Below the pieces are notes generated by a model, which saw nothing but the letters and a program-made list of their open reading frames with translations, made no database searches and was not told the origin of the DNA. DNA of 64,000 nucleotides from an uncultured Anaerolineales bacterium (lineage in GTDB: Bacteria; Planctomycetota; Phycisphaerae; FEN-1346). The stretch lies in the NCBI GenBank assembly GCA_964461715.1, contig CAYWVR010000011.1, positions 11,289 through 75,288 of the forward strand, written 5' to 3'. The position numbers were made by a program, and so were the translations under genes. This document shows, piece after piece, positions 53,037 to 62,732 of the stretch (positions are counted from its first letter, which is position 1; each line of letters opens with the position of its first letter).

Positions 53037-53936
53037 ATGGGTCTCAAGGACAACCTGAAGGAGTTGGCCCGTCTCCGTCGTGAGCTCGGCATGCTCCGCG
53101 ACACGGACGCCTTCCGCCAGCGCGTGCGCCGGGCCCGCAAGGGGCGCGGCATGACGCTCGAGGAGTTGGCCTCCGCCACGGGTATGGCCAAGAGCTACCT
53201 GTCGCAGATCGAGACCGGCGCCGCCAGCCCGCCCCGCGACGACAAGGTCCGCCGCATCGCCGCCGCCCTCGGCCTCGACGAGGTCGAGCTCGTGAGCCTG
53301 GCCCGCCACGCCCAGTTGCCCGACGAGATGCGCGAGCGGATGGCCCGCCTCGCGACGATCTTCGACATGACCGAGGAGCGGATTCAGAACCTCCTCGAGG
53401 TCCAGGCCCTGCGCGAATCCGCCGACGCCGCCCCCGTCGACCTCGACGCCCTCCACCGAAGCGGCCTCCTGGAGAAGCTCGCCGCCTGGGGCGAACCCGC
53501 CCCGCCCGCCCGCCTCCGGCGCGTCCCCATCATCAACAAGGTCTCCGCCGGGTACTCCGTCGAGTTCACGGACCTCGACTACCCCGTGGGCGTGGCCGAC
53601 GAGTACATCGCCGTGCCCGTCGACCTCGGCGACCCGCATGCCTTTGCCGTCCGCGTCGTCGGCGACTCCATGGAGCCGCGGTACCACGAGGGCGACGTCG
53701 TGATCCTCAGCCCCGCCGAGACCATTCAGAGCGGCGACGACTGCTTCGTCCGCTTCGCCCCGGAGGTGCGCCGGAAGGGCAACGAGGCCACGTTCAAGCG
53801 CGTCTTCTTCGACGCCGAAGACGCTGTGCGGCTCCAGCCGTTGAACGAGAGCTACCCGCCCGACGTCGTGGGGCCCGCGGAGATCGCCGGCATCTACCGG
53901 GCCGTCGCCCGCTACGAGAAGCTCGAGCGCAAGTGA
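53037..53936 (+). CDS. CI/LexA-like repressor (XRE-family HTH + S24 peptidase domain)
   Basis: ATG 53037 follows GGGAGG. HTH LEELASATGMAKSYLSQIETG. C-terminal S24 domain with GDSMEP (Ser nucleophile) and a downstream basic residue region (FKRV). Confidence 0.8.
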   Translation: MGLKDNLKELARLRRELGMLRDTDAFRQRVRRARKGRGMTLEELASATGMAKSYLSQIETGAASPPRDDKVRRIAAALGLDEVELVSLARHAQLPDEMRERMARLATIFDMTEERIQNLLEVQALRESADAAPVDLDALHRSGLLEKLAAWGEPAPPARLRRVPIINKVSAGYSVEFTDLDYPVGVADEYIAVPVDLGDPHAFAVRVVGDSMEPRYHEGDVVILSPAETIQSGDDCFVRFAPEVRRKGNEATFKRVFFDAEDAVRLQPLNESYPPDVVGPAEIAGIYRAVARYEKLERK

Positions 53937-53944
53937 GGCTCGCC

Positions 53945-54970
53945 ATGGACGACGACGTCATCCTGATGGCCGACGGCGGGGGCGGCGAGCGGATGCTGGA
54001 GCTCATCCGGCGCGAGATTCTCGCCCGCTTCGCACCGGGCGGCCGGGGGCAACTCGCGCGCCTCTTTGACGCGGCCGTCCTCGATCCCGGCCCCGGCCCG
54101 ATCGCCTTTACGACCGACAGCTACGTCGTGCGGCCGCTCGAGTTTCCGGGCGGCAACATCGGCCGCCTTGCCGTCGCGGGCACCGTCAACGACCTGGCGT
54201 GCGCCGGGGCGCGGCCGGTGGCCCTGTCGCTGGCGCTGATTCTGGAGGAGGGCCTGCCGCTCGCCACCCTTCGGCGGGTGCTCGACGCCGCGGCCAAGGC
54301 GGCCCGCGAGACGGGGGCGGCGGTGGTGTGCGGCGACACGAAGGTCGTCGAGCATGGAAGCGCCGACGGGATGTACATCAATACCGCCGGCATCGGACGC
54401 ATCGAGACCGCCCGGGCCCTGGGACCCGAGACGATCCGCCCCGGCGACCGCGTCCTCGTCTCCGGCACCCTCGGCGACCACGGCGTGGCCGTGATGAGCC
54501 GCCGCGAGGGCCTCGAATTCGAGGCGGCGGTCGCAAGCGACGCCGCCCCCCTCTGGCCCCTCGCCGAGGCGCTCATGAACGCATGTCCGAACCTTCGGGC
54601 CCTCAAGGACCCGACGCGCGGCGGGCTGGCGGCGGCGGTGAACGAGATGGCCGAGGCGGCCGGCGTCGGCATCGAGATCGAGGAAGCCGCCGTCCCCGTG
54701 CGCCCGGCGGTGGCCGGGGCCTGTGAGGCCCTGGGGCTCGACGTCCTCACGGTCGCGAACGAGGGAAAGTTCGTCGTCGTCGCCCCGCCCGACGAAGCCG
54801 AGGCCGCCCTGGCCGCCATGCACGCCCACCCCCTCGGCCGCGCCGCCCGCTCCATCGGCGCCGTCCACGACGCAGGCCCCCCCGGCCCCCGCGTCACGTT
54901 GATCACCTCGATCGGCGGTCGCCGCGTCCTCGAAATGCCCTACGGCGAAGATCTGCCGCGCATCTGCTGA
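53945..54970 (+). CDS. hypE: [NiFe] hydrogenase maturation protein HypE (carbamoyl dehydratase)
   Basis: Near-complete collinear similarity to E. coli HypE, including FTTDSYVV.PLFFPGGNIG.LA..GT.ND.A..GA.P, VSGTLGDHG and the C-terminal PRIC. Begins 9 nt after the repressor stop. Confidence 0.9.
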   Translation: MDDDVILMADGGGGERMLELIRREILARFAPGGRGQLARLFDAAVLDPGPGPIAFTTDSYVVRPLEFPGGNIGRLAVAGTVNDLACAGARPVALSLALILEEGLPLATLRRVLDAAAKAARETGAAVVCGDTKVVEHGSADGMYINTAGIGRIETARALGPETIRPGDRVLVSGTLGDHGVAVMSRREGLEFEAAVASDAAPLWPLAEALMNACPNLRALKDPTRGGLAAAVNEMAEAAGVGIEIEEAAVPVRPAVAGACEALGLDVLTVANEGKFVVVAPPDEAEAALAAMHAHPLGRAARSIGAVHDAGPPGPRVTLITSIGGRRVLEMPYGEDLPRIC

Positions 54971-55861
54971 ACGGCAAGGCGCCGGGCATCGGGCGACGGC
55001 AAACGGCGAACGTGACCTCCGGACGGGTGGGGATGCCGGCATAGGTAAGGCTTCGAGATTGCCAAGAGCGTCAACGTTCAGTCCGTTCGCGACGAAGTTC
55101 AGGGCGGCGCTTCCCTTGGGGCGGCCGTGGACGGGCCCGGGTCCTGTCTGACGAATCGGATCGGGCTTCGAGCGGCCGCATTCGCCCCTGGCGGCGTCTG
55201 CCTGGAAACTCATGCACACGTCTGAGGCGCGCGGGTTTCGCTCCGCGCCGCGCGCTCGATGCCTTGGCCCCGGGGCCGGCATACGACGCATGGCCACGTG
55301 TGGCCGTGTATTCCGCGGTCCGCGTTCCGAGCTCCGCGTTCAGTCCCCGCCCCTGCCGCAAAAACGCAAATGCCCACATTTTTGCGTCAGGTTCTCCGGG
55401 GCAATGGCCAAGGCCGGCGGGGGGGCGGCAAGAAGGGGTCAACTTCGTGCAAAAAGGGGGGCAAAAGGGGCGAGTTCCCCCCGGGTACCCCCCGAAAAGG
55501 TGCGAAAAGTGTGTCGCGGAGGGATAAATCGTTTCACGAATCCCGCCAAACGGGGGTTGGGGGCTGCGCGGCTTGCCCAGCTTGCGCAGGTTGCCATCGG
55601 GGCAAATGATTAGGGCCGGATTGGGGGTCGGGGCGGTCGCCTGGCGGAGGACGGGAGGGCCGGAGTGTTGCGGCGAATCAGCGATGGGCGGACGGATGAC
55701 GATGGACGCGGAGGCAGGGAGTCGGGGGGAGAAAGAGCGTGGGGTGGATCGGGCGGGGAAGGGGGTTGCATCGGGATGGGGGAGGGGTATAATACGACTC
55801 TTTGACGCCCGGTCCAAACGGGCCGGGAAGGCCGAATTCGCAAGAATACGGGGCAAGGGCC
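54971..55861. other. ~890-bp non-coding region with a purine/G-run-rich tract and the rpmE promoter
   Basis: No ORF with a credible translation. Strong G>>C skew on the plus strand from ~55400 to 55790, with many GGGG runs. Inverted repeat ACGCAAATG..CATTTTTGCGT near 55365-55395. Confidence 0.5.
55764..55793 (+). promoter_or_regulatory. putative sigma70 promoter of rpmE
   Basis: TTGCAT, 16-nt spacer, TATAAT, ~70 nt upstream of ATG 55862. Confidence 0.45.
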
Positions 55862-56452
55862 ATGAAAAGCGACATCCATCCCGAGTACGTCGAGTGCAAG
55901 GTGACCTGCGGGTGCGGCAACAGCTTCACGACGCGGGCCACGGTGGGGGAGCTGGCGGTCGAGGTCTGTTCGGCCTGCCACCCCTTCTACACGGGCCAGC
56001 AGCGGTTTGTGGACACGGCGGGACGGGTCGAGAAGTTCCAGAAGAAGTTCAAATGGAACGCCGCCCAGGCGGTCCAGGAGGCCGATGAGGCGGCCAAGAA
56101 GGCCCGCGAAAAGGCCGCGAAGAAGAAGGCGGCCGAGGCCCCGAAGAAGGCCCCCGCGAAGGCGAAATCCGCGGAGGGCAAGAAGCCCGAAAAGGCCGCC
56201 GGCGAGGCCAAGAAGGCCGATGAGGCGAAGGCCGAGTCGAAAAAGCCGGACGAGGCGAAGGCGGGCGCGGGGGGCAAGTCGACGGCGCCCGGGGTGGGGG
56301 AGGAATCGAAGCGGAAGCGTAACCCCCCGTCGAAGGCCAAGAAGGAGTCTCTGACGCCCAAAACGGGCAGCGCGCCCGCCCCGGAGGCCCCCGGCCAGCC
56401 GGCGGCGGCCGCGGACGAGGAGAAGGGGTCGCAGGGGGCGTCAGAGGGCTGA
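55862..56452 (+). CDS. rpmE: ribosomal protein L31 (zinc-ribbon type) fused to a ~125-aa Lys/Ala-rich histone-H1-like C-terminal tail
   Basis: [63 protein letters not shown] is full-length L31 with a CxC...CxxC motif. It continues in frame as [26 protein letters not shown]... to the stop at 56452. Confidence 0.8.
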
Positions 56453-56527
56453 ATTCGGCGATTTGAACGCACGACGGAGCCGGTCGGCCGGAGCGGTCGG
56501 CCGGCTTCTCTATTGGGCCCGGACCCC

Positions 56528-57193
56528 CTACGGATAGTACCAGTAGCCGTACCCGTACCCCATCCGCCAGTATCCGCCGGGCCCGTAGTGGTAGGGGTGT
56601 CGGTAGCGGTAGGGGCTGTAGGCGTAGGGGGGGTAATAGGGGTCGTAGTAGTAGGGGCTCTGGTAGACGACTTCCTCGACCTTGATGAACTTGGTTTCGA
56701 GCGTATGGGCTTTCTCGCCCACTCGATAGGGCCAAACGAGGCGAAAGGAGCCGAGGGTGTCGAAGCGGATTTCGGGGGGCAGCTTGAAAATCAGGTCGGC
56801 GTCGATTTTTCCCTCGGGGGGCACGACGACGGCATCGGTGGTGACATTCTCTCCGGCGAAGTTGGGTTCGGTGACGGTGCGGCCCTCGTCGTCGACGATG
56901 TGGGCCTGGTCGGCCTGAAGCGTAAACGCTTGTGGGGACGTGTTTTGGATCTCGAAGCGGACGCGGATCCGCTGGAGGTCGATCTGGTCCTCACGCTCGG
57001 TGATGGTTCCGCGCGCGGCGACCTCGACGGTGATATTCTGCTCGGGGTCGGGGAGGGCGTATTGGGCCTTGGCGCCCCATCCGCCACCGGCGGCGCGGGG
57101 GGCCTGGGCGGGTCGGAAGTAGACGTCGCTCTTAGCGCAACCCGAGGCGACAGCCAGGGTTACGAGGCCCACAAGGATTACGGTGCGTGTCAT
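56528..57193 (-). CDS. lipoprotein with extreme Tyr/Pro/Gly-rich C-terminal tail
   Basis: Signal plus lipobox MTRTVILVGLVTLAVASGC. CAT 57191-57193 is preceded on the minus strand by GGAGAGGAG. C-terminal YQSPYYYDPYYPPYAYSPYRYRHPYHYGPGGYWRMGYGYGYWYYP. Confidence 0.6.
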   Translation of the reverse strand: MTRTVILVGLVTLAVASGCAKSDVYFRPAQAPRAAGGGWGAKAQYALPDPEQNITVEVAARGTITEREDQIDLQRIRVRFEIQNTSPQAFTLQADQAHIVDDEGRTVTEPNFAGENVTTDAVVVPPEGKIDADLIFKLPPEIRFDTLGSFRLVWPYRVGEKAHTLETKFIKVEEVVYQSPYYYDPYYPPYAYSPYRYRHPYHYGPGGYWRMGYGYGYWYYP

Positions 57194-57356: not shown

Positions 57357-58526
57357 TTGGCGAACGTTGCCATCCTGGGATCGACCGGATCCATCGGCCG
57401 CATGACCCTCGAGGTGCTCGCCTCGCTCGGTGAGCCGTATCGGGCGGTGTCGCTGGCGGCCGAGACGCAGACGGACCGGCTGGCTGCGCAGGTCGCCGCG
57501 ACGGGCGTCAGCCGGGTGTCGGTGGGGAGTGAAAAGGCCGCTCGGAGCCTCCGGGAGGCGCTTCCGAGGGCGAGTGAGGTCGAGATTCTCGTGGGTCCGG
57601 CGGGCCTCGAGGCGCTGGCCTCGGACCCGGAAGCGGACATCGTCCTCTCGGCGGTGGTGGGCGGAGCGGGCCTGCCGGCGGCCCTGGCGGCGGTCCGGGC
57701 CGGGAAGCGGCTGGCCCTGGCGAACAAGGAAAGCCTGGTCATGGCCGGGGCCCTGGTGATGGGCGCCGCGGCCGAGTCGGGGGCCGAGGTCGTGCCGGTC
57801 GACAGCGAGCACTCGGCCATCTTCCAGGCGATGGCGTGCGGGCGGCGCCAGGAGGTCCGAACGGTCGTTCTGACGGCCTCCGGGGGGCCGTTTTACCGGA
57901 AGACGCCGGACGCGCTGGAGAGCGTGACTGCCGCCGATGCGCTTAACCATCCGACGTGGTCGATGGGCCCGAAGATCACGATCGACTCGGCTACGCTCAT
58001 GAACAAGGCCCTGGAGGTGATCGAGGCCCATCACCTGTTCGGTGTGGCGGCGGGCGAGATTCGGGTGCTGGTGCATCCACAATCGACGGTCCATTCGCTG
58101 GTGGAGTTCGTGGACGGGTCGGTGATGGCCCAGCTCGGGCCGCCCGACATGCGGATGCCCATTCAGTACGCCCTGACGTACCCCCGGCGCCGCGGGGCCC
58201 CGTGGCCGCGCCTGGACCTGGCGTCGCTGGGGACGCTGGAGTTCGAGACACCGGATACGGCCCGTTTCCCGGCCCTGGATCTCGGATTCGAGGTCGTGAG
58301 GCGGGGCGGGACGATGGGGGCCGCCCTGGTGGGGGCCGACGAGACGGTCGTCGAGGCGTTTCTCGAGGGCCGCATCCGGTTTACGGACATGGTGCCGCTG
58401 GTGCGACAGGTGGTCGAGGCCCACGCGTTCCGGGCCGACCCGTCGCCGGACGAGATTCGGGACGTGGATCGCTGGGCCAGGAAGGAAGCCGCGCGTTGCC
58501 TAACCTCCTCTACATCTTCGAGATAG
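57357..58526 (+). CDS. dxr: 1-deoxy-D-xylulose 5-phosphate reductoisomerase
   Basis: VAILGSTGSIGR (NADPH motif), LANKESLV, DSEHSAIFQ and NHPTWSMG are Dxr signatures. Start inferred as TTG 57357 (L-A-N-V-A-I-L-G) after GGAG. The ATG/TTG at 57303 is a less likely alternative. Confidence 0.8.
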   Translation: MANVAILGSTGSIGRMTLEVLASLGEPYRAVSLAAETQTDRLAAQVAATGVSRVSVGSEKAARSLREALPRASEVEILVGPAGLEALASDPEADIVLSAVVGGAGLPAALAAVRAGKRLALANKESLVMAGALVMGAAAESGAEVVPVDSEHSAIFQAMACGRRQEVRTVVLTASGGPFYRKTPDALESVTAADALNHPTWSMGPKITIDSATLMNKALEVIEAHHLFGVAAGEIRVLVHPQSTVHSLVEFVDGSVMAQLGPPDMRMPIQYALTYPRRRGAPWPRLDLASLGTLEFETPDTARFPALDLGFEVVRRGGTMGAALVGADETVVEAFLEGRIRFTDMVPLVRQVVEAHAFRADPSPDEIRDVDRWARKEAARCLTSSTSSR

Positions 58527-60553: not shown

Positions 60554-61864
60554 TTATAGCTCCTCCAGCTCCACCAGGTGGGCCGAGCAGGAGATGCAGG
60601 GGTCGTAGGCCCGGACGAGCATCTCGAGCTGGAACCGGATCTCTTCCTGCGTCTTGCCCTCGCTCATCAGCTGCGGGACGTAGGCCCGGAAGTCGGCGTC
60701 GATGTTCGCGAGGTTCTGGTTCGTCGGGATCACCAGGTTCGCGTTCTGGACGATGCCCTCGGCGTCGTACTCGTAGGCGTGCACCAGGGTGCCGCGCGGC
60801 ACCTCGACGACGCCGACGCCCCATCCCTCGGCGCCGTTCCATTCCATGGGCGGGGTCTCGTCCTGGATGCCGTTTTCGATCAGCTCATCCAGGAGCCGCA
60901 GCACCTCGTAGAAGCAGTGGACGCCCTCGACGACCTGAGCCGTGTTGTTGTGGAACGGGTTGGTGCAGGGAGCGGCGAGGCCGAGCTTCTCGGCGGCGGC
61001 CTTGCCCTCGGCGTTCAGTTGGGTGTGGTTGTTGTTGAAGCGGGCCAGGGCCCCGACCATGAGGCTCTCGCGGCGGTTCTTCACGTGCTTGGCGGAGGAG
61101 TGCCGAACGACCTCCTCGTGGATGATCTCTTTGTATTCGTGGTAATCGACCTTGTCGCCGTCGGTGGTGACGAGGTCGCCCTTGTAGAAGGCGTACTCCT
61201 CGGGACAGGTGATGGCCTCGTACTCGGTCTCCCGCTCGAACTGCGGGACGTCGAGGCCGGCAAAGAGGTCGACCGAATCCTGCGTGTCCTTCTCGTGCTT
61301 CGCGACGTGGTTCCGCAGCTCCTTCAGCTTTCGGACGGTCGGGAGCTGCATGTAGCCGCCCGGCACCATGGAGACCGGGTGCACGTGCCGCCCCACGAGG
61401 ACGCGACAGATGTGGTTCGCGAGGCCCTTCAATCGCATGGCGCGCAGGACCACGTCCGTGTGGGTCTTGGCCATGGGAATGACGCTCGGGGCGCCGAAGA
61501 AGTCGGGAGCGACGAGGAAGTAGGTGTGGAGCCAGTGGCTCTCGAGCTGCTCGGCATGGAGGACGATGCGGCGGAGGCGCTCCGTCTGCTCGGAGAGCTC
61601 CAGGCCCATGGCGTCCTCGGTGGCGTTCAGACTCGCCGTCCCGTGCCCGCACGCGCAGATGCCGCAGATGCGGGTCGTGAGGAACATCGCGTCGGTCCAG
61701 GACCGTCCGCGGAGCATCGCTTCGAAGAAGCGGGGGCTCTCGGTGATCTCGAGCTTCGTCTCGACCAGCTCGCCGTCGCGGACCTTGGCGACGATGTTGC
61801 CGTGGCCCTCGACGCGCGTGACGTAATCGACCCGGACGTCCAGGTTCTTCGTGGCTTCAGCCAT
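60554..61864 (-). CDS. [NiFe] hydrogenase large (alpha) subunit, group 3 (sulfhydrogenase/bidirectional type)
   Basis: N-terminal RICGICACGH (L1 Ni-binding motif) and C-terminal DPCISCSAH (L2 motif); only 7 residues follow the terminal His. CAT 61862-61864. Confidence 0.9.
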   Translation of the reverse strand: MAEATKNLDVRVDYVTRVEGHGNIVAKVRDGELVETKLEITESPRFFEAMLRGRSWTDAMFLTTRICGICACGHGTASLNATEDAMGLELSEQTERLRRIVLHAEQLESHWLHTYFLVAPDFFGAPSVIPMAKTHTDVVLRAMRLKGLANHICRVLVGRHVHPVSMVPGGYMQLPTVRKLKELRNHVAKHEKDTQDSVDLFAGLDVPQFERETEYEAITCPEEYAFYKGDLVTTDGDKVDYHEYKEIIHEEVVRHSSAKHVKNRRESLMVGALARFNNNHTQLNAEGKAAAEKLGLAAPCTNPFHNNTAQVVEGVHCFYEVLRLLDELIENGIQDETPPMEWNGAEGWGVGVVEVPRGTLVHAYEYDAEGIVQNANLVIPTNQNLANIDADFRAYVPQLMSEGKTQEEIRFQLEMLVRAYDPCISCSAHLVELEEL

Positions 61865-61937
61865 GGTCTATCCTGCTCCCGTCTCTTGGGATTGCCCCAT
61901 CGCGCCGGGTCGGAAACCCGCCGCGCCCATCGCTCGT

Positions 61938-62693
61938 TCAGACCTCTTCGGCGACTTCCTTGTAGTAGCCCTGCATCAGGCGGAACTCGCGGAGGATATC
62001 GTCCACGGTCAGGCCGAACTCGGCCATGACCTCTTTGGCGGCGTCGGTGTTGGGATTGTCGACGAGGCCGCGGCAGCCGATGCACTTGTGCCCGGCGCTC
62101 GGGCACAGGTACGGGCGGCATCCGGCCCGCGTCACCACCCCCAGGCACGGCACGCCCTTGTGCCACAGGCACACGTTGCCGGCCAGCTTGCAATCGACGC
62201 ACACGGGGTAATTGGGGGCCTTGTAGGGCTTGCCCATGAGGACGCACTTGGCCGCCTCCAGGAACTCCTCCGGATTCAGCGGACAGCCCCGCAGCTCCAG
62301 TTCTACCGGCACCTCGGCCTTCAGCGGCCGGGCCGCGATGTGCGGGAACCAGTCCTTCTTGTCCCCGTACACGTACTCGGCCACGTCGTCCGGATCCTGG
62401 AAGTTCTTGATCATGTTAACGCTGCCGGAGGCGGCACACTCGCCGAGGGCGACGAGGACGTCGGTCTTGGCGCGGATCTCCTGGATCCGCTCGATGTCGT
62501 GGGCGGTGACGATGGACCCCTCGACGAAGGTGATGTCGTAGTGGTCGGCGTCGCCGGTGTGGGCCTCGCGGAACCGGACGATGTCGGCCCGCTCCAGGAT
62601 CGGCAGCAGCCGGTCCTCGCAGTTCAGGACCTGGAGCTGGCAGCCTTCGCAGCAGGCCAGCGAGAAGAAGGCGAGCTTGGGTTTCTCGGCCAT
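61938..62693 (-). CDS. [NiFe] hydrogenase small (delta) subunit, group 3
   Basis: FFSLACCEGCQ is the proximal cluster motif; further Cys clusters (CPLNPEEF, CVDCKLAGNVC, CLGVVTRAGC, CPSAGHKCIGC). CAT 62691-62693 is preceded on the minus strand by GAAGGA. Confidence 0.9.
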   Translation of the reverse strand: MAEKPKLAFFSLACCEGCQLQVLNCEDRLLPILERADIVRFREAHTGDADHYDITFVEGSIVTAHDIERIQEIRAKTDVLVALGECAASGSVNMIKNFQDPDDVAEYVYGDKKDWFPHIAARPLKAEVPVELELRGCPLNPEEFLEAAKCVLMGKPYKAPNYPVCVDCKLAGNVCLWHKGVPCLGVVTRAGCRPYLCPSAGHKCIGCRGLVDNPNTDAAKEVMAEFGLTVDDILREFRLMQGYYKEVAEEV

Positions 62694-62732
62694 GGGTTGT
62701 CCTTCAGTAACCTCGGATCGCGTCGCGCGTGC

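Follow-up and report, generated by a model that had tools for sequence, protein, structure and literature searches.

A ribosomal protein bL31 with a long, predicted disordered C-terminal extension in an uncultured Phycisphaerae lineage

Introduction

Ribosomal protein bL31, the product of rpmE, is a small protein of 70 amino acids (aa) in Escherichia coli and 71 aa in T. thermophilus. On a 64,000-nucleotide stretch of contig CAYWVR010000011.1 (positions 11,289 to 75,288; the whole of it is called the window here), the rpmE open reading frame (ORF) encodes 196 aa, in which a complete L31 domain is continued by a long tail rich in lysine and alanine. The locus raises the question of what this tail is: a piece of unrelated sequence joined to L31 by error, a histone-like domain, as an initial annotation made from the sequence had suggested, or an extension that belongs to the ribosomal protein of this lineage. 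We find that 55862..56452 is a genuine zinc-binding bL31 (rpmE) gene and a full member of the type A family, and that its protein is an unusually long case of a known class of disordered ribosomal protein extensions that belongs to no histone-like family. That the gene is a real rpmE whose disordered extension is typical of its clade we regard as nearly certain; what the extension does on the ribosome is a separate question, on which our reading is far less firm.

The gene and its parts are laid out as follows.

55862..56452, + strand: rpmE ORF, 196 aa, from the ATG at 55862 to the TGA at 56450-56452
55862..56053, + strand: rpmE core, residues 1-64, a complete zinc-type (type A) bL31 domain (Pfam, NCBIfam and Protein Data Bank (PDB) matches)
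56054..56128, + strand: residues 65-89, an invariant W65 and a clade-conserved predicted helix (alignment A1 of relatives, AlphaFold2 (AF2) model and family-tail profile)
56129..56371, + strand: residues 90-170, a Lys/Ala/Glu/Pro-rich spacer, predicted disordered, net charge +10, isoelectric point (pI) 9.9 (predicted local distance difference test (pLDDT) scores, shuffles and composition)
56372..56449, + strand: residues 171-196, an acidic Pro/Ala/Gly/Ser-rich end, net charge -4, pI 4.05, ending ..KGSQGASEG
56450..56452, + strand: TGA stop codon of rpmE

The L31 core and the continuity of its tail

The Pfam family PF01197 (Ribosomal_L31) spans residues 1-64 and covers its model from end to end (1-65 of 65; E = 5e-32, 110.3 bits against a cut-off of 27), and two NCBIfam L31 equivalogs, TIGR00105 (106.8 bits against 38.35) and NF000612 (107.4 against 70), also score above their cut-offs, with the NCBIfam L31 model ending at residue 68. 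PDB chains of bL31 match the same core with E-values down to 8e-26. The zinc ligands C16, C18, C36 and C39 (CxC...CxxC), which define type A proteins, are present and are invariant across the relatives in alignment A1. The type B form (C-, YtiA/YkgM-like), in which these cysteines are replaced and a loop of ~15 aa is inserted, does not describe the protein, as the cysteines are retained and the type B model NF002462 reaches 56.4 bits, below its cut-off of 86, with a match to residues 31-64 only. The automatic ORF list begins rpmE at TTG 55802; because the N-terminus MK.DIHP is common to all homologues, we take the ATG at 55862 to be the true start. The protein has a mass of 20.4 kDa and a pI of 9.4, the core alone accounting for 7.2 kDa. 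The initial annotation had described a complete zinc-ribbon L31 with an in-frame tail, 196 aa in total, and the start, the stop and the full-length PF01197 match bear this out.

The tail comprises residues 65-196 (131-132 aa) and continues in frame from the L31 core without interruption. The open frame is by itself weak evidence of coding, because DNA of ~70% GC leaves several frames open by chance, and other frames across the tail contain ORFs of 115-228 codons. Firmer signs that the tail is coding come from its base and residue usage. The GC content by codon position is 0.69/0.57/0.92 in the tail, a pattern shared with the L31 domain (0.52/0.45/0.91) and with the downstream gene dxr (0.71/0.53/0.87). 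Lysine codons are AAG (28) or AAA (5), and alanine is encoded by GCC or GCG only. Lysine makes up 21% of the tail and arginine 2%, against 3.0% and 9.7% in the other predicted proteins of the window, and every other ORF of the window lacks a comparable Lys-rich segment.

The joining of L31 and tail is genuine. Logan contigs from SRR7048218, SRR7048224 and SRR7048225 match the window at 100% identity over 2.3-2.5 kb, beginning at position 55526, and a contig from SRR7048227 is identical up to ~57833, beyond the entire rpmE; these four contigs come from separate runs that were separately assembled. Dozens of orthologues extend in frame past the L31 core. A stop in an alternative + strand frame at 56086-56088 (ORF 55573..56088) would yield an L31 of ~75 aa, and the conserved in-frame helix reaches residue 89 (nucleotide 56128), past this stop. 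The concern that a frameshift separates two genes, raised at the outset, is settled by the identical rpmE in the four runs and by the in-frame orthologues. All four Logan contigs with this rpmE start exactly at window position 55526. The SRR7048227 contig (L081:2300-2869 against window 57833-58394) falls to only ~88% identity inside dxr, with many small indels, which marks either a junction of related strains or a chimeric unitig.

A conserved helix followed by a disordered, fast-evolving region

The tail is made up chiefly of alanine (35), lysine (27), glutamate (17), proline (12) and glycine (12), and its 30 K/R residues are set against 21 D/E residues, which leaves a net +9 across 131 aa (~+0.07 per residue) with 16% acidic residues. 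In alignment A1, W65 is invariant and the consensus W[DN]AxQAV..AE.AAKK comes next, many relatives then having KPKRKP. The helix is followed by a variable spacer, either Lys/Ala/Pro-rich or Gly/Arg-rich, and beyond the spacer by a loosely conserved basic-PP segment and a Pro/Glu/Ala-rich end. AF2, run on the same alignment, models the L31 core together with a helix at residues 67-89 (block pLDDT 72-78), and pLDDT is below 50 across most of residues 98-196. The distal ~107 residues are thereby predicted to be intrinsically disordered; they are fast-evolving and weakly basic with an acidic tip.

How far conservation extends along the tail was measured with a profile built from 57 family tails, the window tail being left out, with each segment scored against 500 shuffles. 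The first 25 tail residues reach 18.9 bits against a shuffle maximum of 8.7 (0/500 shuffles reach the score), the remaining 107 residues reach 0.1 bits (shuffle mean -10.4 ± 4.1; 10/500), and the part past tail residue 45 reaches -1.8 bits, a score attained by 67/500 shuffles. The proximal tail is a positionally conserved Trp-helix, while all that is retained in the distal tail, predicted to be disordered, is its class of length and of composition and a mild positive charge. Searches with the tail alone returned nothing besides itself among 5.8 billion proteins (residues 72-196, E<=1e-3), no family in Pfam at E<=10 and no match among PDB chains (phmmer, E<=10), and BLASTP of the window tail against the tail of a syntenic orthologue (P0004) produced no alignment at E<=100.

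The initial annotation had seen AKK/KKA/EAK repeats in the tail. The Lys/Ala-rich composition behind this description holds, but true repeats do not: the best array found in the tail DNA by Tandem Repeats Finder (TRF) runs for 2.8 copies with a period of 24 nt and 61% matches, and other repeat copies are 63-75% identical. These are degenerate internal DNA repeats of 24-30 nt, and a true tandem-repeat protein is rejected on the weakness of this periodicity. The final 26 aa do not share the Lys/Ala-rich character: this stretch is acidic (pI 4.05) and rich in Pro, Gly and Ser.

Comparison with other L31 proteins and ribosomal protein extensions

With canonical type A bL31 (RpmE of E. coli and T. 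thermophilus) the window protein shares the full L31 domain, the CxC...CxxC ligands and the C-terminal K-K-F-x-hydrophobic segment, which forms bridges B1b/B1c on the 30S head in E. coli. It differs in its ~126 extra C-terminal residues, in its mass (20.4 kDa against ~7-8 kDa) and in its gene context, since this rpmE is not beside prfA and has a HypE-like gene on one side and a small ORF, dxr and rseP on the other. A disordered ribosomal protein extension is defined as more than 20 aa past the E. coli terminus, predicted disordered, and the window protein, which runs ~126 aa beyond the E. coli L31 end, falls within this definition. Many bacteria have extensions of this kind, most of them predicted to be disordered and with largely elusive functions (Xue et al., 2022, PMC9534751). 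L31 extensions of more than 20 aa are found in 138 of 4,396 representative bacteria (3%), 81% of them mostly disordered, and 11 M. pneumoniae ribosomal proteins carry extensions, among them L31 with 25 aa (Xue et al., 2022, PMC9534751).

The M. pneumoniae L31 (97 aa; PDB 7OOD) is extended C-terminally relative to E. coli, as is the window protein, and is the longest native bacterial bL31 matching among solved structures. Its 25-aa tail has no sequence similarity to the window tail, which, at about five times the length, comes from a different clade and has its own conserved Trp-helix. The chloroplast bL31c of spinach (PDB 5MMI, 130-aa chain) likewise exceeds the bacterial norm in a solved ribosome, but only its L31 domain matches (query 2-64 against chain 38-102), its extra length is mostly N-terminal and it has no Lys/Ala tail. 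The 125-148-aa PDB entries 5mmi, 4v61, 7nbu and 7p48 match through the L31 domain alone, at an offset; 28jw_Y is a further entry in this length range. In the literature searched, we found no description of a long-tailed planctomycete L31.

A full-length search returned 2,570 proteins (E<=1e-5), and PF01197 is present in every one of the best 120, whose lengths run from 108 to 257 aa; the named ones among them are 50S ribosomal protein L31 of a 'Phycisphaerae bacterium' or 'Planctomycetes bacterium'. W65 and a tail of 84-187 aa occur in at least 58 related L31s, which are Phycisphaerae or Planctomycetes wherever they bear a name, and all of these tails are net positive (+0.01 to +0.17 per residue). 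A search with the L31 domain in a 50%-identity representative library found tails of >=60 aa in 24 of 142 parsed representatives, a library unfit for frequencies in that odd lengths and mis-called starts are over-represented in it. L31 lengths in a one-genome-per-species collection are listed here.

L001: L31 of 187 aa
L002: L31 of 166 aa
L003: L31 of 174 aa
Six Phycisphaeraceae genomes: L31 of 74-76 aa
Another Planctomycetota genome: L31 of 81 aa

The longest of these, in L001, is syntenic with the window, the order rpmE, small convergent ORF, dxr (73% identity) and rseP being retained. L086 encodes a 194-aa L31 with a Gly/Arg-rich tail and likewise has dxr and rseP downstream, and a 136-aa form on a 7.87-Mb contig lies in a tig-clpP-clpX-rpmE-prfA-prmC context. 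Metagenome-assembled genomes (MAGs) of Phycisphaerae and Planctomycetota carry L31s (e.g., MFO8012774.1, 221 aa) that share with the window W65, the W[DN]AxQAV..AE..KK helix and the positive tails, and some share its dxr/rseP synteny. Many of these relatives have KPKRKP, Gly/Arg-rich (RGG-like) spacers and an S-T-E-R motif, where the window protein has Lys/Ala/Glu/Pro instead. The best named matches of the window dxr are 63-73% identical and come from Phycisphaerae/Planctomycetota MAGs (Pirellulaceae, 55%). Because the best named dxr and L31 matches both lie there, we assign the window to an uncultured Phycisphaerae lineage.

The tail recurs in this clade, syntenic orthologues included, while the Phycisphaeraceae keep 74-76 aa, and on these comparisons it is a lineage-typical feature of Phycisphaerae/Planctomycetota. 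The initial annotation had offered a lineage-specific ribosome decoration as one possibility and had proposed looking for the extension in orthologues; the first agrees with this distribution, and the second is answered by the at least 58 tailed relatives and the syntenic 187-aa protein. L001 (CAZGKW010000008.1) is labelled 'uncultured Anaerolineales bacterium' yet is syntenic with the window, whose other best matches are all Phycisphaerae/Planctomycetota, and the taxonomic label of this bin looks wrong. Long Gly/Arg-rich (RGG- or glycine-arginine-rich (GAR)-like) runs replace the Lys/Ala spacer in L086:5001-5585 (P0019) and in P0006-P0008, P0011, P0030, P0043 and P0058, and the runs in Phycisphaerae L31s are flanked by recurring KPKRKP, LHTT and S(T/S)ER motifs; an RGG-type disordered region is unusual on a bacterial ribosomal protein. 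One further relative, P0002 (166 aa, on an 872-nt ENA contig), holds two complete L31 domains in tandem within one ORF, joined by an Arg-rich linker; it may represent neighbouring rpmE paralogues brought together by fusion or by a frameshift, or else a genuine duplicated form.

In the short-L31 relatives, namely the Phycisphaeraceae L006, L007, L011, L015, L016 and L020 and the Planctomycetota L004, the 1.5 kb downstream of rpmE contain no Lys/Ala-rich ORF, and an origin of the tail by gene fusion is rejected on this ground. The tail most likely arose in place, when the ancestral stop was lost and low-complexity sequence expanded, since a separate source ORF is not found beside the short genes. 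A second group of long L31s, of 135-178 aa, occurs in Coriobacteriia (Collinsella, Olsenella, Eggerthellaceae), where an L31 core is again followed by a long Ala/Glu/Lys-rich tail. These proteins have a DKFGG/DRFG junction and no W65, and their tails look helical and net acidic, as judged by eye and not computed; this expansion probably has an independent origin. Coriobacteriia-type L31s lie at L017, L026, L049, L050, L055, L058, L071 and L075 (match at ~4001 in most). L017 is labelled Phocaeicola dorei though its L31 is of this type, and is probably a mislabelled bin.

A proposed role at the 30S head and its alternatives

Where the extension would sit can be approached from known ribosome structures. 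The N-domain of bL31 lies on uL5 and 5S ribosomal RNA (rRNA) in the central protuberance, and its C-segment lies on the 30S head, on uS13, the hydrophobic surface of uS14/uS19 and, via R63, 16S h42; together the two parts form bridges B1b/B1c (Aseev et al., 2020, PMC7297116; Khusainov et al., 2016, PMC5137454). These two papers also describe bL31 as a loosely attached protein with a part in joining the subunits and in the dynamics of the ribosome. In a hand alignment of the C-segment with that of E. coli, GRVDRFNKRFNI, the window protein has K62/F63/W65 in place of R63/F64/I66. From this conservation and the published structures, we infer that the window bL31 takes part in bridges B1b/B1c and that the extension would start on the 30S head.

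In the mechanism we propose, the extension would exit the protein at the 30S head, where the conserved helix would widen the head-side contact. The Lys-rich disordered part may then engage rRNA in its vicinity, or tRNA or mRNA, through non-specific, 'fuzzy' electrostatic contacts, while the acidic tip would remain in solvent. The outcome would be that a loosely bound L31 is kept on the ribosome and that the bridge is reinforced or tuned. The lysine content of the tail (21% against a background of 3.0%) is cited in support, as a sign that lysine has been selected for. RGG chemistry is typical of RNA binders, and because syntenic orthologues carry Gly/Arg-rich spacers, an RNA-directed role fits better than a DNA-directed one. 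Taken as a whole, the statement that this is a real rpmE whose clade-typical extension acts as a fuzzy RNA-binding tether at the 30S-head end of B1b/B1c is one on which we place even confidence.

Several points weigh against this tether. Among the PDB chains searched, none of the bL31 chains that exceed 97 aa shows an extension like this one, and the contact partners assigned to the helix and tail are taken from the geometry of other ribosomes and so stay putative. The distal tail is without positional conservation, even between syntenic orthologues, and neutral low-complexity drift gives the same picture. A net charge of +9 is trivial beside that of rRNA, so any effect of charge must be local. 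Lastly, the Coriobacteriia L31 tails include clearly acidic examples (again judged by eye), and a basic RNA tether is therefore no general rule for L31 extensions.

The absence of positional conservation leads to a serious, if on present evidence unlikely, alternative, in which the tail is a neutral low-complexity appendage: an ancestral stop was lost, slippage-prone GC-rich DNA expanded, and the product, with no function of its own, is tolerated because the C-terminus of bL31 faces the solvent. This would account for the lack of positional conservation in the distal 107 aa, for syntenic tails that give no BLASTP alignment, for the absence of any tail homologue among the 5.8 billion proteins and for the degenerate 24-30-nt repeats in the DNA, and it agrees with how common disordered ribosomal protein extensions of mostly unknown function are in bacteria (Xue et al., 2022, PMC9534751). 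It fits poorly with a tail that is kept in at least 58 diverged cluster representatives at 84-187 aa and always with positive charge, with lysine at ~seven-fold over background in a GC-rich genome that disfavours Lys codons, with the conservation of W65 and the helix, and with the coding-type GC content at third codon positions (GC3) in the tail.

A broader functional reading, which we consider improbable, would make the tail a ribosome-anchored disordered module of the Phycisphaerae clade that acts, from its place at the intersubunit bridge, beyond the mechanics of translation. Lys/Ala and Arg/Gly (GAR/RGG-like) chemistries would be interchangeable in such a module, with length and mild positive charge kept, and its roles might lie in ribosome clustering or condensation with RNA, in attachment of ribosomes to the nucleoid or to the internal membranes of planctomycete cells, or in storage and hibernation. 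If true, it would be a bacterial counterpart of the eukaryote-like tails on ribosomal and nucleolar proteins.

The histone-like reading of the initial annotation fares worse. Lys/Ala/Pro-rich composition resembles that of H1 C-terminal domains and mycobacterial HU tails, and H1/Hc1-type proteins are dense polycations with few acidic residues. The likeness of the window tail to the H1 C-terminal domain, chlamydial Hc1 and actinobacterial HU tails is confined to residues ~79-110, a locally Lys/Ala/Pro-rich stretch with a net charge of ~+7 over 30 aa. In other respects the tail differs from them: it is a polyampholyte of much lower charge density (+0.07 per residue, 16% acidic), has no detectable homology to them and is carried by a ribosomal bridge protein. 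Membership of the linker histone H1/Hc1 group thus finds no support in sequence, whether in Pfam (no match at E<=10, hence no Linker_histone or Hc1), in the PDB or among the 5.8 billion proteins, nor in composition. With Gly/Arg-rich spacers in syntenic orthologues and bL31 anchored at the ribosomal subunit interface, we hold it distinctly improbable that the tail binds DNA and anchors ribosomes, or free L31, at the nucleoid.

Another proposal is that the disordered spacer presents a terminal docking motif, ..PK..GQ[AG], to another ribosome, a factor or a membrane component. GQ or QG occurs in the last 9 aa of 27/58 family tails against 3.3 ± 1.7 in 2000 shuffles, although the sequences are related and the shuffle test therefore overstates the significance, and the window protein ends ..KGSQGASEG. 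Its last 30 aa do not stand above shuffles when scored with the family C-terminal profile (40/500 and 25/500 shuffles reach the score), and internal windows score higher; we rate a tether with such a docking motif as very improbable. Finally, a sequencing or assembly frameshift, or read-through, that joins L31 to unrelated sequence is rejected as having next to no chance of being right, for what speaks for it, namely the frames kept open by chance in high-GC DNA and an alternative-frame stop (56086-56088) where an ordinary L31 would terminate, is answered by a gene identical in four assemblies, a conserved helix that runs past that stop, more than 100 homologues with in-frame tails and a tail GC3 of 0.92 in the rpmE frame.

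The neighbourhood of rpmE

The features around rpmE are listed in order of position.

53933-54970, + strand: HypE-like gene of the AIR-synthase family, upstream of rpmE
54971-55861: ~890 nt without a convincing ORF, between the HypE-like gene and rpmE
55766..55793, + strand: candidate promoter, TTGCAT, 16 nt, TATAAT (perfect -10 at 55788-55793), as read from the sequence
56482..56506, + strand: terminator-like hairpin of 10 pairs (7 GC), then TCTCTATT, a consensus match only
56528..57193, - strand: 221-aa ORF convergent with rpmE
60554-62732, - strand: NiFe-hydrogenase large and small subunit genes

No ORF in 54971-55861 passes the codon-position GC test, and the ORF 55071..55856 on the - strand has no Pfam match. 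This region is G-rich on the + strand, with a GC skew of up to +0.56 at 55600-55800, and blastn of the upstream 890 nt against L001-L007 found no similarity. Rfam gave no match at gathering thresholds in the window, and locally around rpmE only noise at E<=5. The candidate promoter, which a consensus scan left out as its -35 matches at 3/6 positions, would give rpmE a 5' untranslated region of ~60 nt. The terminator-like hairpin lies between rpmE and the convergent ORF (1 found against 2.2 expected in shuffles). From this context rpmE is probably monocistronic.

The convergent ORF (56528-57193) belongs to no Pfam family. Its N-terminus resembles that of a lipoprotein (..LAVASGC..), and its C-terminus, rich in Tyr, Pro and Gly (..YYYDPYYPPYAYSPYRYRHPYHYGPGGYWRMGYGYGYWYYP), is unusual; the ORF is kept beside rpmE in the syntenic L001, at 35% identity over 176 aa. 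Past it, the gene order continues with dxr, rseP and the NiFe-hydrogenase genes. The NiFe-hydrogenase and HypE-like genes that flank rpmE-dxr-rseP suggest hydrogen metabolism in this Phycisphaerae lineage.

Implications

Disordered extensions of bacterial ribosomal proteins, L31 included, have already been documented in general terms, and for this reason nothing established is overturned here. For annotation, the ORF is right at its full length and calls for no 'repair' to that of an ordinary L31. bL31 connects the small-subunit head with the large subunit, with effects on subunit association, initiation and fidelity, and a protein tripled in size by a flexible charged tail could alter ribosome dynamics, stability or localisation in a poorly studied and mostly uncultured class. 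Because no PDB ribosome searched has a bL31 with such a tail, this clade is a concrete target for comparative ribosome structural biology.

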